DNA of 32,000 bases from Faecalibaculum rodentium (lineage in GTDB: Bacteria; Bacillota_I; Bacilli_A; Erysipelotrichales; Erysipelotrichaceae), in assembly GCF_001564455.1 (NCBI RefSeq), contig NZ_CP011391.1, positions 240,001 to 272,000 on the forward strand, in the 5' to 3' direction. Positions 16,842 to 23,606 of the stretch are shown in pieces; position 1 is the first letter of the stretch; every line of letters starts with the position of its first letter. The position numbers and the translations under genes are program-made. The notes under the pieces were generated by a model, which did no database searches, had not been told where the DNA came from, and saw only the letters and a list, made by a program, of their open reading frames with translations.

Positions 16842-17159
16842 AAGCGTGTAAAGCTGATAAGGAAGAGAAGACGATAATTAGGTCATGTTTGAAACCTCAA
16901 TCTTATACTAGGTAAGTTGACTGAACCCCTCTTAGGAGTGGTGAGATTCGTCGCATATTGTGAATAATCGATAGTGACAGGAACTTTTAACCAAATTAAA
17001 ACCATGTATGGAGTAAACAGGGGAGTGAATCTTTACGATTGATATGTAAGCCTTTACGGAAATTGTACTAGAGCATCTGTGAGTATGCTATGATTATTTA
17101 TCATATCGTTTATTTCTATAGTTTTTTGATTGCTTCGATATAAGAAGGGGATTGACTTT

Positions 17160-17882
17160 ATGCTTGAAGTTTGGGAAGAAGAAGGAATGCAGGAAGAGGT
17201 TATCCATTTGGATGCCTTGGAAAAAGATATAAGCCGAGAAATCAGCCGTTTGGAATTTAGAATCCAGGGACTGGATCTAAGCTCTGCAGTCGACTATGAC
17301 GATGTGGAACGATTAAAAGACGAGAGAAGAAGATTCAAGAAATATAAAGATTCTATCTGCCTTTTGAATATACAAGCAATGGAACCATATCATGGGCGAA
17401 TAGATATGGAAGATTCGGAAACAGGGGAATTGAAACAGTTTTATATTGGTCGAGAGGATTTAACTTTTAATTATACAGACCAGCGTGTTGTTGACTGGAG
17501 ATCTCCAATGGGCAATATTTTCAGCTCTAAGAAGAAGGAGTTTCTTTTTGATGGTCGAATTCATAGATTAATTTTGAGACGAGACATAACCATCAAAAAT
17601 AAAGAGCTGAAAGAAATCAACACAAGCTTCGATATCAACAATGAGATTCTGGGCAGCGAAGTTGTAGATAAGTTTCTGTTATCAGTGCTGAAAGATAAGC
17701 GAAGAGAGAATCGGTTGACAGACATTATTCAGACAGTAAACGCTACTCAAAATGAAATCATGAGAAGGCCCTTTGAAGAAAATTTCATTGTTCAGGGCTG
17801 TGCTGGATCTGGAAAAACCATGGTACTGCTTCACCGACTATCGGTTTTAAGTTTTGAAAATCAGTATCTGGATATAGAAAAA
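17160..17882 (+). pseudogene. HelD-like (UvrD-type SF1) helicase, N-terminal fragment cut by an IS
   Basis: ATG at 17160 follows AAGAAGGGG. HelD N-domain motifs are EPYHGRID, FYIGR and VVDWRSP. Walker A VQGCAGSGKT lies at 17796-17819. As it stands, the ORF reads on into the IS and stops at 17990. Confidence 0.85.
17875..17882. repeat. Left 8-bp target-site duplication TAGAAAAA
   Basis: Identical to 19003-19010 and immediately flanks the IS terminal inverted repeat. Confidence 0.85.
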
Positions 17883-19002
17883 CTTGATAGGCTACGAAGC
17901 TCAGTAAAGCTAAGCTGCAACCAGTTGTTTCTGGACGTCTTTAAAGTAGTCGATCATACCCTGCCGGGTCTGGTGAGCACCGCTGATTAGAGTTCTTCCC
18001 AGTGATGCAAAGATACTCTTTTTCTTCCATTTCCGGCGACTCAGTTTCCACTCGAAGTCTGCTAATTCGTTCTCCAGAAACTGCAGTGCGATCCCGTGTG
18101 CAGTCCCCTGTACCTTGCTTCTGAAGTTGGAAATGATGTGATCCAGAGAGGACAGATGATCTGTATCCACTTCGAACTTTTGGGCATCCACCAGTTTGCC
18201 GGCTATATCCAGAGCCAGGTTGGCCGAACTCCGGTCACAATGCACTACACAGTCACTGGGGACTTCTTCTTCCAGAAACTTCTTCAGTTCTGCCTTATTC
18301 TCGCTGTGAACGATTCTGAATTTGACAGCATCTGTGGCTTCGAATACTTCCTCATCACCATCCATGTCGTCCCAGACATAGTGTTTGATCACAGCTGCAG
18401 CCACATTGACTTTACCTTCTGCTCCCCATCCACGCTTTCCATGCTTCTTTCCGCCATAGGAAAAGACATCCAGTTCGATCGCATCGCAATCAACGGCTAT
18501 GTGAGTTTCGTTGTCCTGCTTCTGAGCCTGTTTGATCTTGCGAAGCATGAGTTTTGTGGTGTGGTAGCTGACACCTGTCAGATCACTGATGTATTTGGCA
18601 GAAGTTCCCGTCTTGGAGATAACATAGGCGAACATCACGAGGATCCAGGAAAACAGAGGAGCCTTGGTGCTTTCCAGCGCTGTCCCGGCAGTGACAGATT
18701 CCTGATGACCACAGTGAGCGCACTGATAGACAGTTCTGAGAGAGCCGTTTTTTCGTACAACAGTCGTGTAGTGGGTATGACCGCACTTTGAGCACACAAA
18801 ACCATCCTTCCACTTCAGATCAAAGAAGAAGCGTTCTGCGTCATGGGGGTCTGAATACTGGGCATGGATATCAGCAAAAGTCAGGTCTTTGAACAGCGAT
18901 TTCTTGAACATAGGGTGCCTCTCTTCCTGATTCAAGTATCGCATTATTACTGGCGCTATTTATGCGTGATAAGCTATTAACTGAGCTTGGTAGTCTATCA
19001 AG
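17883..19002 (-). mobile_element. IS1595-family insertion sequence (1120 bp)
   Basis: Imperfect terminal inverted repeats: CTTGATAGGCTACGAAGCTCAGT on the left versus the reverse complement CTTGATAGACTACCAAGCTCAGT on the right (21 of 23). It has a single transposase gene and 8-bp direct repeats, as expected for IS1595. Confidence 0.85.
17910..18911 (-). CDS. IS1595-family transposase (N-terminal zinc ribbon plus DDE domain)
   Basis: Zinc-ribbon motif FDLKWKDGFVCSKCGH...YQCAHCGHQESVTAGTALESTKAPL, then ...IELDVFSYGGKKHGKRGWGAEGK. The MFKK start at 18911 has the RBS GGAAGAGAGG. The longer ORF starts at 18944. Confidence 0.85.
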   Translation of the reverse strand: MFKKSLFKDLTFADIHAQYSDPHDAERFFFDLKWKDGFVCSKCGHTHYTTVVRKNGSLRTVYQCAHCGHQESVTAGTALESTKAPLFSWILVMFAYVISKTGTSAKYISDLTGVSYHTTKLMLRKIKQAQKQDNETHIAVDCDAIELDVFSYGGKKHGKRGWGAEGKVNVAAAVIKHYVWDDMDGDEEVFEATDAVKFRIVHSENKAELKKFLEEEVPSDCVVHCDRSSANLALDIAGKLVDAQKFEVDTDHLSSLDHIISNFRSKVQGTAHGIALQFLENELADFEWKLSRRKWKKKSIFASLGRTLISGAHQTRQGMIDYFKDVQKQLVAA

Positions 19003-19010
19003 TAGAAAAA
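19003..19010. repeat. Right 8-bp target-site duplication TAGAAAAA
   Basis: Identical to 17875-17882. Confidence 0.85.
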
Positions 19011-21017
19011 ATCAGAGTGATAACACCAAACCCTAATTTCAGTTTATTTATAGACGAATTAAGCACCGACTTAAAGATTGGGCTGATTAAAAAACAATCC
19101 GTTGAAGAATATTACATGGATCTGGTAAAACGATTCCATTCTTCTTGGAAACCAAGTGGATCTTTAAGAACTGAGACATCACTCGATACGGAGGTTCTGG
19201 AGTATATTTACTCAATCGATTTTCAAAAAATGATTTCTAATGAGCTCAGGAAGAAATGGAAGAAATCTATAAATATCTTGACGAAATGTGGTTTTCCAGA
19301 AATTGTCAAGAACAGTGGTTTGGCTTATCCGGACATATCGGAGCCTGGTTATAAATCATTTGCAATGCTTCAAAATATGATTACTGCATTAAATGTGCAA
19401 AAGCAAAAACACCAACAGAATGCAGAAAAACTGGGTATAGAACTTAAGGCAAAAGAAAGGCAATTTGCTGTTATTCAATTTGTAGAAGTGATACTGCGGA
19501 AAAAGCTGCAAAACCAGATTACAGGCTTACATAGATTCATAGAGGATACTCTCGCAAAGAAAACTGTTGAGAGAAGAACTATTAGTATTCAGTATCCTGA
19601 TTTGCACAGAATAATAAATAAAATCAAAAAAGATATTGAAGAGGAAAAGGAGAGACTGAACCAGCTTCAATTAGAAGCATCTAAATGTGATCCGGATTCG
19701 GCTGAGAATCGTGATTTTTGGTTTAGTAGCTGTCCTGAGATGCGATCCACTTATGAGGAAATGAAATTATTGCAAGAGCAACTTAGAAAGGTTCCGGCTT
19801 ACAATTTCACAAAAAAGAACAAATTAAAGAAACGGATTTCTGTATTGTCCAATTCTCTTGATCGGACAATCCTGGTCAACATGGAAAAGCAGAGAAATGA
19901 AAAGCTTAGGGAAATTAAAAAAATAGAGGCAGATATTGAAATTAAAGAAACTGATTTTAATGGATATATCAATAAACTAAGTGAGTTGAGGACACAGTTT
20001 AATGACCTGACCAATGAAATTACCCGGCTGAATATTGCTGCAACAGGAACAATGGATAATACTTCTTTGCCTTCTCCGGAATTGTTAAAATCTATAACCC
20101 AAAATGAAGAAGTAGATAACTACAGTTCTGTGTATAAAAAATGGGTAGATATTTCTTTCGCAAGGGAAAACTTGGATTATGATTTAATCAATGAAAAGAC
20201 TGACAACTATAAAAGCGAATTAAACTGGATTCAATCGTTTATGACAGCAGAAAAGGAAGTACAGAGTCTCACATTTGATGCCTTATACAAGAATCTAGTT
20301 AAAAAAGCTATAACTAAACTTTTTTCTGAGAGTGACAAGGATAAGCGCCCAAAATCAGGATATTATCGATATAACATTTATACAGTGCTGTTCTTGTGCA
20401 GCTTGTACTATTCAACGTTGCCGGAGAAAGATATTCTTCTTTGCATTGATGAGGCACAGGATCTTTCCTTGTGTGAATATATGCTCCTTCACCACATTCA
20501 GGGGAAGAATTGCATATTTAACCTATACGGAGATGTAAACCAACTTGTGTATTCCTATAAGGGAATACCTGACTGGGAGATGCTCGAAGATATTCGAGAA
20601 TTTCAGCTCTATCAATTAAATGAAAACTACAGAAACACTAATCAGGTTACTGAATTCTGTAATGATGAATTGGATAGCGAAATAACATCAATCGGCATTT
20701 CTGGACCAGAAGTGAAGAAAATGACTATTGTCGATGCACTAAATGAACTCTATATTCAAATTCTAAGCGAGGAAGGCTCCAGAGCTGTAATCTACAGTTC
20801 CAATAACGTAACCTCGAAAAAACAAATCCAACAAATGGGTAAGGATATATGCTTCTGTCCGGGAAAGGTTGAAAAGGGAAAAATAGCCCTTTTAACTGTT
20901 GAAGAGTCGAAAGGGCTGGAGTTCCAAACTGTTCTCGTTATCCCTGAAAACATGGAATACAATGACTTGTATGTAGCATACACACGGACTTTGAACGAGC
21001 TGATCATTGGATTATGA
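19011..21017 (+). pseudogene. HelD-like helicase, C-terminal fragment (coiled-coil arm plus Walker B and 2A domains)
   Basis: It continues in frame from 17882 (…LDIEK|IRVITPNPNFSLFIDEL…). Motifs are CIDEAQD (20448-20462), YGDVNQ, NENYRNTNQV, ESKGLEFQTV and YVAYTRT. ORF 18987.. begins at a TTG inside the IS inverted repeat. Confidence 0.85.
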
Positions 21018-23593
21018 AGGATTATATTAATCAAAGATGCACTCACATACGTTACGGTTCTGGAACCATTATCAGCCAAAATTCAAAAATAATTGAAGTA
21101 ATATTCGATGATATTGGTGAAAAAAAGAAATTTGCGTATCCCTCATGCTTTGAAAAGTTTATAACTTTAGTCGATTCGGAGGTGCAATTAGCGGCTAAAA
21201 GTCAGGCAGCAGAATTGGAGAATCAGAATTTACAGCAAGCCAAAAGACGAGAAGAGGAGAAAAGAGCTCAACAGTTTCGAGAGCGTCATGAGGATGAATT
21301 GAAAGAAATGTTTGATATTCCTCAATATGAAACTTTATCGAGTTTTTCCAACCATTTTAAATCATTGGTTTTAGACGAAATTCAAAGCGTACGAATGCAT
21401 CCCAAGCGAAAGTATAAACTGAGGGATGGGAGGCTTATAAAACGGCAGGGTGGAGAGTACATTTATTCTTATGACTTGGAGGATAATCTTCAGCTTCCTG
21501 AAGATCAGGTAATTAATTTGTATATCAGTGCAAATGGAATATATATAGTTAATGATTTTGCTCGGGTCATTTCCTGCGAAGACTTCGAAATCACATTCAG
21601 TACTCTTGTAGATTTATCAGCTAATCTGAAGGTATTGGAAATCTCTTCGAGCCTGACGTGGCTATTGGAAGCTACAGTTGAACGACTTGAAGAATTAAGT
21701 GAGAGCCATTCTCCTATTGCTACAGAATTGGTTACTGCTGGAAAAAAACACATCATCAATGATAATTCGTTGATATGTATAGGGCAGGATACAGCAAGAG
21801 AAATGGCAACTCATCAACAAATAACATTTATTTGGGGGCCGCCAGGAACTGGAAAAACTGAGGTACTTGCACGAATTGGGAGTGATCATTTGAAACAAAA
21901 TCATCGAATTCTCCTAGTTTCTACAGCCAATACTGCGGTTGATGGAGCAGCCTTACGACTGATACGGATGGGCGACAAAGATAGTTTTTCCCCAGGCCAA
22001 ATTATCCGGTATGGGTTTCCCAAAGATCGTGCAGTCACCGAACACCCGTATTTATGGGTACAAACACTTCTGGAAACCAGATATCCTGAAGTATTTGCCA
22101 GGAAAAAGAAACTGATAGAGTTGCGTAAAGATGCATCCAATACAGATGATCATATAAAAGCAGAACTTAGCAAAATAAATCTATACATTAAAGAGTTGAC
22201 AGCCGGTATTGTGGAAAATGCACAGTTTATAGCTACATCTATAGCCAAAGCTAAAACGGACAAACTAATTTGCAAACCAGGAAACTTCGATGTAGTGATT
22301 TTCGATGAAATTTCTATGGCATTGATTCCGGAAGTTGCAATCCTTGCAAACTTATGTAAGAAAACGTTCATTGGAATCGGTGATTTCCGGCAGCTGGCTC
22401 CTATTGCTCAATCTGGAGAAATACATAATGAATTAATCAGTGACATGTTTAACTATTGCGGTATCCATCAAGCTGTGGATAGTGGCTGCAGTCATGAATG
22501 GTTATGTATGCTGGATACACAATATAGAATGCATAGGGATATTGCGACTTTCATTTCTCGAAGCTCATATAAAAATAAGCTCAAAACAGCAACTGGGATT
22601 AGTGAAAAACGAATAATAGGAATAGAATCTAAGCCGTTATCAGGATTTCCAGTTGGGATTCTTGATTTATCAGGAATGATGACTGTATGTAGACAAACAG
22701 CCGAAAAATCAAGATTCAATATATTATCTGCTTTTATTTCTGTTATACAGATTATTCAGGCAAAAGAATGTGTTACATTGGGAATCATTACTCCATATAA
22801 TGCACAATCGAGATTGTTGAAGGCCATTACACGTGATTTAGAAGATAATGGCTTTGAAAAATCATTATTAGAGTGCAGTACAGTACATAGCTTTCAGGGG
22901 TCTGAAAAAGACATAATACTGTTTGATTTGGTTGAATGCTACCTAATGCCTAGTCCAGGGGTTCTTGTAACCGGTATAACAAATGGAACCGCCAATCGGC
23001 TGTTTAATGTAGCTATGTCACGAGCTAAATGCAAATTTATCTGTGTAGCAAATTTGCTCTATTTGAGCAGAAAAAAGTTAAGCCGAAAGCTGGCGTTAAC
23101 TGATTTCATTCATCGACTAAAATCAGAAGCGTATACCCCAGAAATGTACCTTAATACAGCTTTTACAGATTATTATGGTTTTTCAATTTTCACTGATTCC
23201 CGGTCTGCAACCAGACGATTCTTTCAGGACATAAAAAGCGCAAAGAAAACTGTGTATCTGGATATCCCGGATCCTATAAATAAAAGAAATTCATATAGTC
23301 CGCTTGTCGAGGTACTTTTCGACTATAGAGATCATGTGAAAACTACTATACGAGCCCAAAATGTCGAGAATCTTCCGGAAGAGTTTCAAAAACTGAAGCC
23401 TATTGAAGATCGATATAATCCAAGAGACCCGATTGCAATTATTGATGATCATATTCTTTGGTATGGACAGCCTTTGACGGACTCGGCCTTCCTCATAGGC
23501 GATAAAGTAGAACCTGCTTTATACAGGCCTATAATTCGATTCACAGGGAAGCATACAATTGCCCTTCTTTATGATTTTCTCCATATCGAGTAA
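21014..23593 (+). CDS. Upf1/DNA2-type SF1 helicase (AAA_11/AAA_12-like) with N-terminal Tudor-like motif and C-terminal PLD-like domain
   Basis: ATGA overlap with the upstream gene. Motifs are GPPGTGKT (21836-21859), VVIFDEIS, GDFRQLAP, DTQYRMH, ITPYNAQ, TVHSFQGSEKD and NVAMSRAK. Confidence 0.85.
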   Translation: MKDYINQRCTHIRYGSGTIISQNSKIIEVIFDDIGEKKKFAYPSCFEKFITLVDSEVQLAAKSQAAELENQNLQQAKRREEEKRAQQFRERHEDELKEMFDIPQYETLSSFSNHFKSLVLDEIQSVRMHPKRKYKLRDGRLIKRQGGEYIYSYDLEDNLQLPEDQVINLYISANGIYIVNDFARVISCEDFEITFSTLVDLSANLKVLEISSSLTWLLEATVERLEELSESHSPIATELVTAGKKHIINDNSLICIGQDTAREMATHQQITFIWGPPGTGKTEVLARIGSDHLKQNHRILLVSTANTAVDGAALRLIRMGDKDSFSPGQIIRYGFPKDRAVTEHPYLWVQTLLETRYPEVFARKKKLIELRKDASNTDDHIKAELSKINLYIKELTAGIVENAQFIATSIAKAKTDKLICKPGNFDVVIFDEISMALIPEVAILANLCKKTFIGIGDFRQLAPIAQSGEIHNELISDMFNYCGIHQAVDSGCSHEWLCMLDTQYRMHRDIATFISRSSYKNKLKTATGISEKRIIGIESKPLSGFPVGILDLSGMMTVCRQTAEKSRFNILSAFISVIQIIQAKECVTLGIITPYNAQSRLLKAITRDLEDNGFEKSLLECSTVHSFQGSEKDIILFDLVECYLMPSPGVLVTGITNGTANRLFNVAMSRAKCKFICVANLLYLSRKKLSRKLALTDFIHRLKSEAYTPEMYLNTAFTDYYGFSIFTDSRSATRRFFQDIKSAKKTVYLDIPDPINKRNSYSPLVEVLFDYRDHVKTTIRAQNVENLPEEFQKLKPIEDRYNPRDPIAIIDDHILWYGQPLTDSAFLIGDKVEPALYRPIIRFTGKHTIALLYDFLHIE

Positions 23594-23606
23594 TTGAGAA
23601 GATAAT

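Follow-up and report, generated by a model that had tools for sequence, protein, structure and literature searches.

We analysed a 32,000-nucleotide stretch of the Faecalibaculum rodentium genome (the window, to whose first letter all coordinates refer), in which a low-GC island at ~17000-23600 (GC content 0.34-0.48 vs ~0.57 in the flanks) lies between the genes for a PhoR-like histidine kinase and a class I aldolase. The island holds only two helicase genes and an insertion sequence (IS) element. The upstream gene encodes a HelD-like helicase (helicase A) that is split by the IS, and the downstream gene encodes the protein studied here, helicase B, a complete 859-amino-acid open reading frame (ORF) on the plus strand (21014..23593) recognised from the ORF list, Pfam AAA_11/AAA_12 matches, AlphaFold2 (AF2) modelling and Foldseek comparison. 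The protein begins with the sequence MKDYINQRCTHIRYGSGTIISQNSKIIEVIFDDIGEKKKFAYPSCFEKFITLVDSEV. Its ATG aligns with the first residue of ~120 homologues, indicating that the N terminus is genuine, and many assemblies contain the same 859-residue form, which is thus not an assembly artefact; the F. rodentium "AAA domain-containing protein" WP_067554489.1 belongs to the same 90%-identity protein cluster. The full-length AF2 model (predicted local distance difference test score (pLDDT) 81.5; predicted template modelling score 0.72) displays, in order, a Tudor domain, a helix, a helix/barrel/stalk region, two RecA domains and an alpha/beta C-terminal domain (residues 720-857).

An earlier reading made from the sequence alone had proposed that residues 8-52, which it placed correctly at 21035-21169, resemble the Tudor domain that PcrA and UvrD normally carry at their C terminus. 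Our analysis bears this out: residues 1-55 (21014..21178, plus strand) are with high confidence homologous to the Tudor domain at the C terminus of PcrA/UvrD, their fold and homology being established by a profile search against Protein Data Bank (PDB) sequences, hhalign, AF2, Foldseek and conserved residues. As a single sequence, residues 1-100 match only two Pfam models, Tudor_1_RapA (E 0.071; 13.5 bits vs a cutoff of 26.3) and PcrA_UvrD_tudor (PF21196; E 0.16), both below their gathering scores. DUF3553, a second model suggested by the sequence-only reading, is matched at E<=1 neither by the window protein nor by the family N-termini. PF21196 is matched at E<1 by six of eight family N-termini, and its gathering score of 23.9 bits is passed by family member P0197 (29.5 bits) and by the six-repeat protein P0167 (34.9 bits). 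The domain is conserved throughout the homologues listed, with the consensus MDLIGKKVxHxKFGEGxI..Q....VSVKF.....KKFxYPSCFKTFLKLLD.

A domain profile was built from 29 homologous N-termini and searched against 177,635 PDB sequences. Its top three matches are UvrD C-terminal domains (CTDs; 6yi2, 4.5e-4; 7egs_B, 5.3e-4; 7egt_B, 3.6e-3), and the D. radiodurans UvrD C terminus is matched as well. The 20-23 bits that the profile scores against UvrD CTDs equal the level at which true UvrD orthologue CTDs match one another, the E. coli domain scoring 23.2 bits with that of T. thermophilus and 17.1 bits with that of M. smegmatis UvrD1. Aligned by hhalign with the CTDs of E. coli UvrD and G. stearothermophilus PcrA, the profile gives a probability of 95.7% (P 8.6e-9) over 35 columns; a T. 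thermophilus UvrD fragment, used as a short PDB query to extend the CTD alignment, added nothing.

The structural check that the sequence-only reading had called for gave the same answer. AF2 folds residues 1-62 (pLDDT 83.8) into a five-stranded barrel (strands 8-11, 15-22, 26-31 and 36-41, a short helix, and strand 50-52) that matches the PcrA CTD (5dma) with a TM score of 0.78 and a root-mean-square deviation of 1.8. The strand order is that of a Tudor/SH3 barrel, and the full-length model reproduces it. In a Foldseek search of this model against 350,542 PDB chains, with TM normalised by target length, the nine best matches include RapA (6bog, the top match), the UvrD CTD (7egt_B and 7egs_B), the PcrA CTD 5dma and the UvrD1 Tudor domain (9dqs), and the only interloper from outside RapA, UvrD and PcrA is a PWWP domain chain. 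Foldseek against viral structures (BFVD) returned only generic small barrels (E>=2e-3) and was uninformative. We consider it highly improbable that the resemblance is a product of chance in a generic, small, beta-rich N terminus unrelated to PcrA/UvrD: single-sequence Pfam scores below threshold and Foldseek E-values above 0.01 would be expected of such a segment, but profile, profile-profile, structural and transitive evidence converge on UvrD/PcrA, and the functional residues are conserved.

These functional residues are known from mutagenesis. PcrA H681, W684, K712 and L714 were each mutated to test RNA polymerase (RNAP) binding, a strong reduction being reported for point mutations in the CTD (Sanders et al. 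2017, PMC5397179); in UvrD, K708A weakens RNAP remodelling (PMC5397179). In the hhalign alignment, H11 of helicase B corresponds to PcrA H681, Y14 to W684 (F in UvrD) and K38 to K708/K712, while F40 is placed on L714 by ungapped extension. Among 187 unique subfamily domains, His is found at position 11 in 98%, Phe or Tyr at position 14 in 98%, Lys at position 38 in 90% and Phe at position 40 in 98%. These positions rank among the most conserved of the domain, and helicase B retains all four residues. Residue 6 of the helicase B domain is Asn, the usual residue being Gly.

The target of the PcrA/UvrD Tudor domain is a hairpin, the helicase interaction motif [VIL]DxxTGE[VIL][VILT] of RNAP beta and UvrB (PMC8318588). 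As modelled, K727 of PcrA pairs with E233, the Glu of this hairpin in UvrB. No conserved D..TGE that could act as an intramolecular partner is found among 131 full-length family proteins, and neither RpoB nor UvrB is encoded within the window. Alternatively, the barrel could grip single-stranded DNA (ssDNA) or RNA in the manner of SH3/KOW/PWWP-like nucleic-acid-binding domains, with no protein docking. The Foldseek matches to an ssDNA-binding PWWP domain (6kco) and to Spt5 KOW, at E-values close to those of UvrD/PcrA, are consistent with such a role, as are the weak DNA binding reported for the UvrD CTD (cited in PMC8318588) and a survey of BREX systems in which Tudor domains of this kind are considered potential anchors on DNA (PMC12839542). 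We nevertheless judge this quite unlikely, as the sequence-level kinship in the profile search and hhalign is specific to UvrD/PcrA CTDs, the isolated PcrA CTD bound neither ssDNA nor double-stranded DNA (PMC5397179), and the conserved residues are those of PcrA's protein-binding face.

The Tudor domain is followed by a predicted long, charged alpha-helix rich in Glu, Lys, Arg and Gln (residues 55-98; 21176..21307, plus strand; E10 Q7 A6 R5 K4 of 46 residues). The sequence-only reading had described a charged coiled-coil linker here. The long charged helix is indeed present in the AF2 model, but the model, being of a monomer with a single helix, does not demonstrate a coiled coil. In the full-length model the pLDDT of this helix drops from about 82 to 44 and is low at residues 90-98, and the family alignment shows it to be poorly conserved. 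On the basis of the model, it could be a single-helix spacer. Residues 108-246 (21335..21751, plus strand) then form a helix, a beta-barrel and a helical stalk, assigned from AF2 secondary structure, that resemble the barrel and stalk which Upf1-like helicases carry as accessory domains. This region is kept in relatives that have no Tudor domain, whose tblastn matches begin at about residues 104-122.

The helicase core spans residues 258-700 (21785..23113, plus strand) and is supported by Pfam, NCBIfam, PADLOC and invariant alignment columns. Pfam identifies AAA_11 (1.6e-20) and AAA_12 (3.5e-28), and the NCBIfam IGHMBP2 family matches at 2.7e-42. With the whole protein as query, Foldseek retrieves SETX/Sen1, Upf1, IGHMBP2, Dna2 and ZNFX1 (E 1e-32 to 1e-26; 1e-32 to 1e-29 for SETX, Upf1, IGHMBP2 and Dna2), which confirms the Upf1-like superfamily 1B (SF1B) lineage and agrees with the Upf1/DNA2-type lineage named in the sequence-only reading. 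The motor motifs comprise a Walker A motif (GPPGTGKT, residues 275-282), the DE of motif II (431-432), QGSE (628-631) and R670, and the Walker A, DE and arginine-finger columns are invariant in the family alignment. Judged from its sequence, the SF1B motor is apparently active.

The C-terminal domain (residues 720-859; 23171..23590, plus strand) is phospholipase D (PLD)-like and lacks the HKD catalytic motif. Its family profile matches the PLD nuclease NucT (6ehi, E 4.5e-4), yet the pattern HxK..D..GSxN occurs in none of 145 family members, 139 of which carry NP..IDK..WFG instead; helicase B reads NPRDPIAIIDDHILWYGQP at the HKD-equivalent site. Helicase B has no counterpart of the tail, ~110 residues long and bearing two topoisomerase-type Zn ribbons, into which nearly all relatives in the family alignment continue. 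The GC shift at the edge of the island starts immediately after the helicase B stop codon (region 23171-23593).

Anti-phage defence islands are home to the large, unannotated family of which helicase B is a member. This family comprises 1506 protein clusters at 90% identity with the full-length protein as query and 2085 clusters at 50% identity with the domain, and the two named clusters checked carry the label "AAA domain-containing protein". The sequence-only reading had called the domain shuffle unusual; this holds against the textbook PcrA/UvrD arrangement but not against a family of this size with published precedents. N-terminal Tudor domains occur on Swi2/Snf2 defence helicases, the RapA-like BrxHII and BR systems (PMC12839542), and Upf1-like defence helicases swap their N-terminal adaptors, as in CnuH with SmpB-like or winged helix-turn-helix domains (PMC11090510). 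A full-text literature search found no paper mentioning both Tudor and Mokosh and none connecting Upf1-like defence helicases with a Tudor domain.

PADLOC matches helicase B to MkoA (3e-58, residues 52-703) and MkoC (1e-21, residues 504-699) of the Mokosh defence systems. When the family alignment was used to scan GTDB species genomes, only distant relatives were retrieved (<=35% identity in the best-matching segment), and a search of these with the Tudor hidden Markov model gave no match in any. Among the Tudor-less relatives, that of Bacillus starts at the barrel domain, and those of Cellulosilyticum and Roseburia carry other N-terminal modules. The canonical HKD motif is kept in 8 of 43 distant GTDB relatives; two of these eight were scanned (L022 and L031) and match MkoC and MkoB. 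Mokosh defence depends on an intact HKD site (Millman et al., bioRxiv 10.1101/2022.05.11.491447), and for this reason we do not class helicase B as Mokosh. Sequence comparison places it in a clade related to Mokosh type II in which the nuclease site has decayed, one branch having gained the N-terminal UvrD-type Tudor domain and helix. The idea that the Tudor domain was gained as the HKD site was lost was rejected, because the closer Tudor-less relatives from Bacillus, Cellulosilyticum and Roseburia also lack the HKD motif.

At the Tudor-helicase loci examined elsewhere the neighbours vary, but the setting is always defence. One homologue, with a gene for a 278-residue product lacking any Pfam match, separates pglX from pglZ in a type 1 BREX locus (L006, L007). 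Others stand beside a type I restriction-modification (RM) system and McrBC, beside BREX, GmrSD and SNF2 genes, and within a cluster of type III-like RM genes that includes DUF4391. This consistent placement in defence islands, together with the swapping of N-terminal modules among related helicases that would be expected of sensor domains (PMC11090510), would suit a Tudor domain that senses the invader, recognising a phage protein or a phage-modified host protein and thereby switching the helicase on. Such a role is improbable in our view: the very strong conservation of the binding face across the 187 unique domains is more in keeping with a host target that is itself conserved than with phage targets, which evolve fast.

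Helicase A, immediately upstream, is interrupted in this strain. Its HelD-like N-terminal part (17160..17882, plus strand; Walker A GCAGSGKT) is cut by an IS1595-family insertion (17883..19002, minus strand), which is defined by Pfam, inverted repeats and an empty site in metagenome sample L079, and its C-terminal part follows at 19011..21017 (plus strand; ORF list and restored frame). The transposase ORF (17910-18944, minus strand) matches Zn_ribbon_IS1595 (7.7e-11) and DDE_Tnp_IS1595 (1.6e-7), the element has 27-nucleotide imperfect inverted repeats (17882-17908 and 18977-19003), and the target duplication is TAGAAAAA. Excising 17882-19009 restores one open frame of 919 amino acids from the listed TTG, or 909 from the ATG called in other samples, and an intact 909-residue helicase A overlapping helicase B is present in other metagenome samples of the same species (L079-L082).

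The stop codon of helicase A overlaps the start codon of helicase B (ATGA, 21014-21017), and because of this overlap the two genes are probably translationally coupled. In F. rodentium, the HelD-like helicase and the Tudor-bearing helicase thus form one two-gene cassette. With phmmer, helicase A aligns to B. subtilis HelD as resolved in RNAP-HelD complexes (6wvk_H; E 6.2e-21, residues 58-288 to 71-299) and M. smegmatis HelD (6yxu_H; 3e-7). Its residues 1-60 look helical and charged, and it contains a coiled-coil-rich insertion of ~400 residues. Mobile or defence regions also harbour homologues of helicase A; of three examined, two adjoin a DUF4011-AAA_11/12-MTES_1575 helicase, and there are hints that HelD-like and Upf1-like helicases are recurrently paired.

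The overall explanation we favour, with a probability of roughly 0.55, is that helicase B docks through its Tudor domain on RNAP and acts there as a Sen1-like translocase in defence. The Tudor domain would serve as a protein-docking module whose face, formed by H11, Y/F14, K38 and F40, clamps an exposed acidic beta-hairpin of a partner. The beta subunit of RNAP would be the most likely partner, because the top bacterial fold matches (the RapA N-terminal domain and the UvrD/PcrA CTDs) contact RNAP and because the operon partner is HelD-like; coming from an RNAP-binding helicase class, that partner fits an RNAP-centred function. The Tudor-like domains of Mfd and CarD also contact RNAP (PMC5397179), and the tether between Tudor domain and motor in helicase B mirrors PcrA, whose Tudor domain sits on a long linker (PMC8318588). 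A 5'-3' RNA/DNA translocase would thereby be held beside transcribing RNAP, where its activity could remove nascent RNA or R-loops or displace the polymerase itself, much as Sen1 does on RNA polymerase II, to act against invading DNA. As helicase B has no nuclease motif, the effector would have to be the motor itself or a partner. Taken as separate steps, docking of the Tudor domain on some hairpin-bearing protein seems probable to us, and binding to RNAP in particular, which the sequence-only reading had predicted, is a tentative proposal at slightly worse than even odds.

Several observations weigh against this explanation. In mycobacteria, the Tudor domain of UvrD1 may be the binding site for Ku. 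One preprint reports that M. tuberculosis Ku stimulates UvrD1 unwinding (bioRxiv 10.1101/2023.09.29.560180). This class of Tudor domain also docks on UvrB, by way of the hairpin motif that UvrB has in common with RNAP, and in UvrD it reportedly has weak affinity for DNA (PMC8318588, the latter as cited there). With more than one candidate partner for the class, the partner of helicase B is not assignable from homology alone. The helicase B domain itself scores 12.3-13.4 bits for PF21196, far short of the gathering cutoff, and its Foldseek E-values are only 0.02-0.07, modest values that are to be expected for a domain of ~50 residues; unrelated SH3-like folds (more PWWP chains, KOW and the 53BP1 Tudor domain) rank close behind. 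In the first Tudor strand, helicase B has Cys at position 9 (21038-21040), where 94% of the subfamily has Val. The protein also ends right after the PLD-like domain, without the Zn-ribbon tail, and the IS in the upstream gene may lower helicase B expression in this strain through a polar effect. Lastly, a HelD-like neighbour is not conserved beside other members of the Tudor-helicase family.

The Tudor domain could instead dock on a hairpin protein other than RNAP, either UvrB, which would direct helicase B to excision repair or damaged DNA, or helicase A. UvrB competes with RNAP for the PcrA Tudor domain (PMC8318588). For helicase A, the candidate site is a predicted hairpin, GRIDMEDSETGELKQFYIG, that holds DSETGEL (~17412-17432, residues ~95-101) between beta-strand-like segments; no other real ORF in the window contains a D..TGE, and the two genes overlap. 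The sequence matches seven of the nine positions of the PcrA interaction motif, but both flanking positions fail. Of the 52 helicase A homologues whose hairpin region can be located, only 2 have a TGE hairpin, the loop being otherwise variable and acidic, and B. subtilis HelD reads ENGEEQ at this position. Moreover, family members without a HelD-like neighbour still keep the Tudor domain. Docking on UvrB or helicase A is unlikely on balance, and binding to the neighbour's DSETGEL hairpin was downgraded as a candidate in view of the 2 of 52 homologues and the absence of the A-B pairing in other family members.

A broader form of the RNAP-docking explanation would join both helicases in one RNAP-coupled immune or surveillance module that clears or terminates transcription on invading DNA. 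Here helicase A would reach RNAP by its N-terminal arm, and helicase B would be clipped to RNAP beta by its Tudor domain. We hold this joint module to be unlikely. If true, it would represent a bacterial counterpart of Sen1-type termination in defence and a nuclease-free offshoot of Mokosh.

Comparison with known systems shows which parts of helicase B are shared and which are its own. Like the PcrA/UvrD Tudor domain (PF21196; 5DMA, 6YI2, 7EGS, 7EGT), its N-terminal domain is a five-stranded barrel with the signature V-x-H-x-x-(F/W/Y)-G-x-G-T-(I/V), a conserved Lys and hydrophobic pair (K-x-L/F), and a long linker to an SF1 motor. In contrast to PcrA/UvrD, the domain lies at the N terminus (residues 1-55) rather than the extreme C terminus, the motor is SF1B Upf1-like rather than SF1A UvrD-like, the linker is predicted to be a helix rather than disordered, and the second half of the domain reads KKF-x-YP-x-CF. 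RapA and the BREX type 3 BrxHII/BR-system helicases likewise carry a Tudor-like domain at the N terminus of a helicase; BrxHII is anti-phage, and the Tudor region of RapA, the top Foldseek match, contacts RNAP. These are SF2 Swi2/Snf2 enzymes, however, whereas the helicase B motor is SF1B and its Tudor sequence is closer to UvrD/PcrA than to RapA.

With Mokosh type II (MkoC) and type I MkoA, helicase B shares an Upf1-like core followed by a PLD-fold domain in one polypeptide, and a location in defence islands. It differs in that its PLD-like domain lacks the His and Lys of the HKD motif, in that the preprint of Millman et al. describes Mokosh proteins without the Tudor domain and helix, and in that most of its relatives add two topoisomerase-type Zn ribbons; its putative link to defence comes from genomic context. 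Sen1/SETX and Upf1, the best whole-protein structural matches (~17-20% identity), are 5'-3' RNA/DNA translocases with a barrel and stalk, and Sen1 targets RNA polymerase II complexes as well as R-loops. Unlike helicase B, these proteins are eukaryotic, have other recruitment domains and lack a Tudor or PLD-like domain. Helicase A resembles HelD/helicase IV in its UvrD-like SF1A type and in the alignment of its N-terminal region and 1A domain to B. subtilis HelD, but it differs by the coiled-coil-rich insertion, by a kinship that is only distant and by being IS-split here.

What is new here is the assignment of a Tudor domain to an Upf1-like defence helicase; it combines known kinds and creates no new category. 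The PcrA/UvrD-type Tudor domain is a known recruiter of bacterial SF1A repair helicases to RNAP and UvrB. Its presence, with partner residues intact, on a nuclease-less, Mokosh-related helicase offers a testable targeting hypothesis, namely docking on the host transcription machinery. It is also a further example of the helicases with Tudor domains that are beginning to emerge from anti-phage loci, and suggests a correction to the annotation of well over a thousand "AAA domain-containing protein" clusters.

Scans of the island for tRNA genes, Rfam elements, promoters and terminators gave nothing significant, and no tRNA or Rfam element marks its borders. At three loci (L086, L087 and L088), helicase A homologues lie directly downstream of an 1820-residue DUF4011-AAA_11/AAA_12-MTES_1575 helicase and a 388-residue protein with no Pfam match; at L088 the contig ends within the first gene, which lacks domain annotation.

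A search of representative proteins gave the Tudor architectures P0167, P0125, P0197, P0161, P0163, P0153 and P0190. The same Tudor subfamily occurs there in tandem, with six copies in P0167, which also passes the CarD_TRCF_RID threshold, and two copies without a helicase in P0125; P0197 has two N-terminal Tudor domains ahead of its helicase. Stand-alone proteins of ~115 residues consist of the Tudor domain and a charged tail, and two stand-alone proteins, P0161 and P0153, lie on short contigs or among uninformative neighbours. The subfamily is also found in proteins of 343-631 residues, of which those of 343-360 residues have unknown C-terminal domains.

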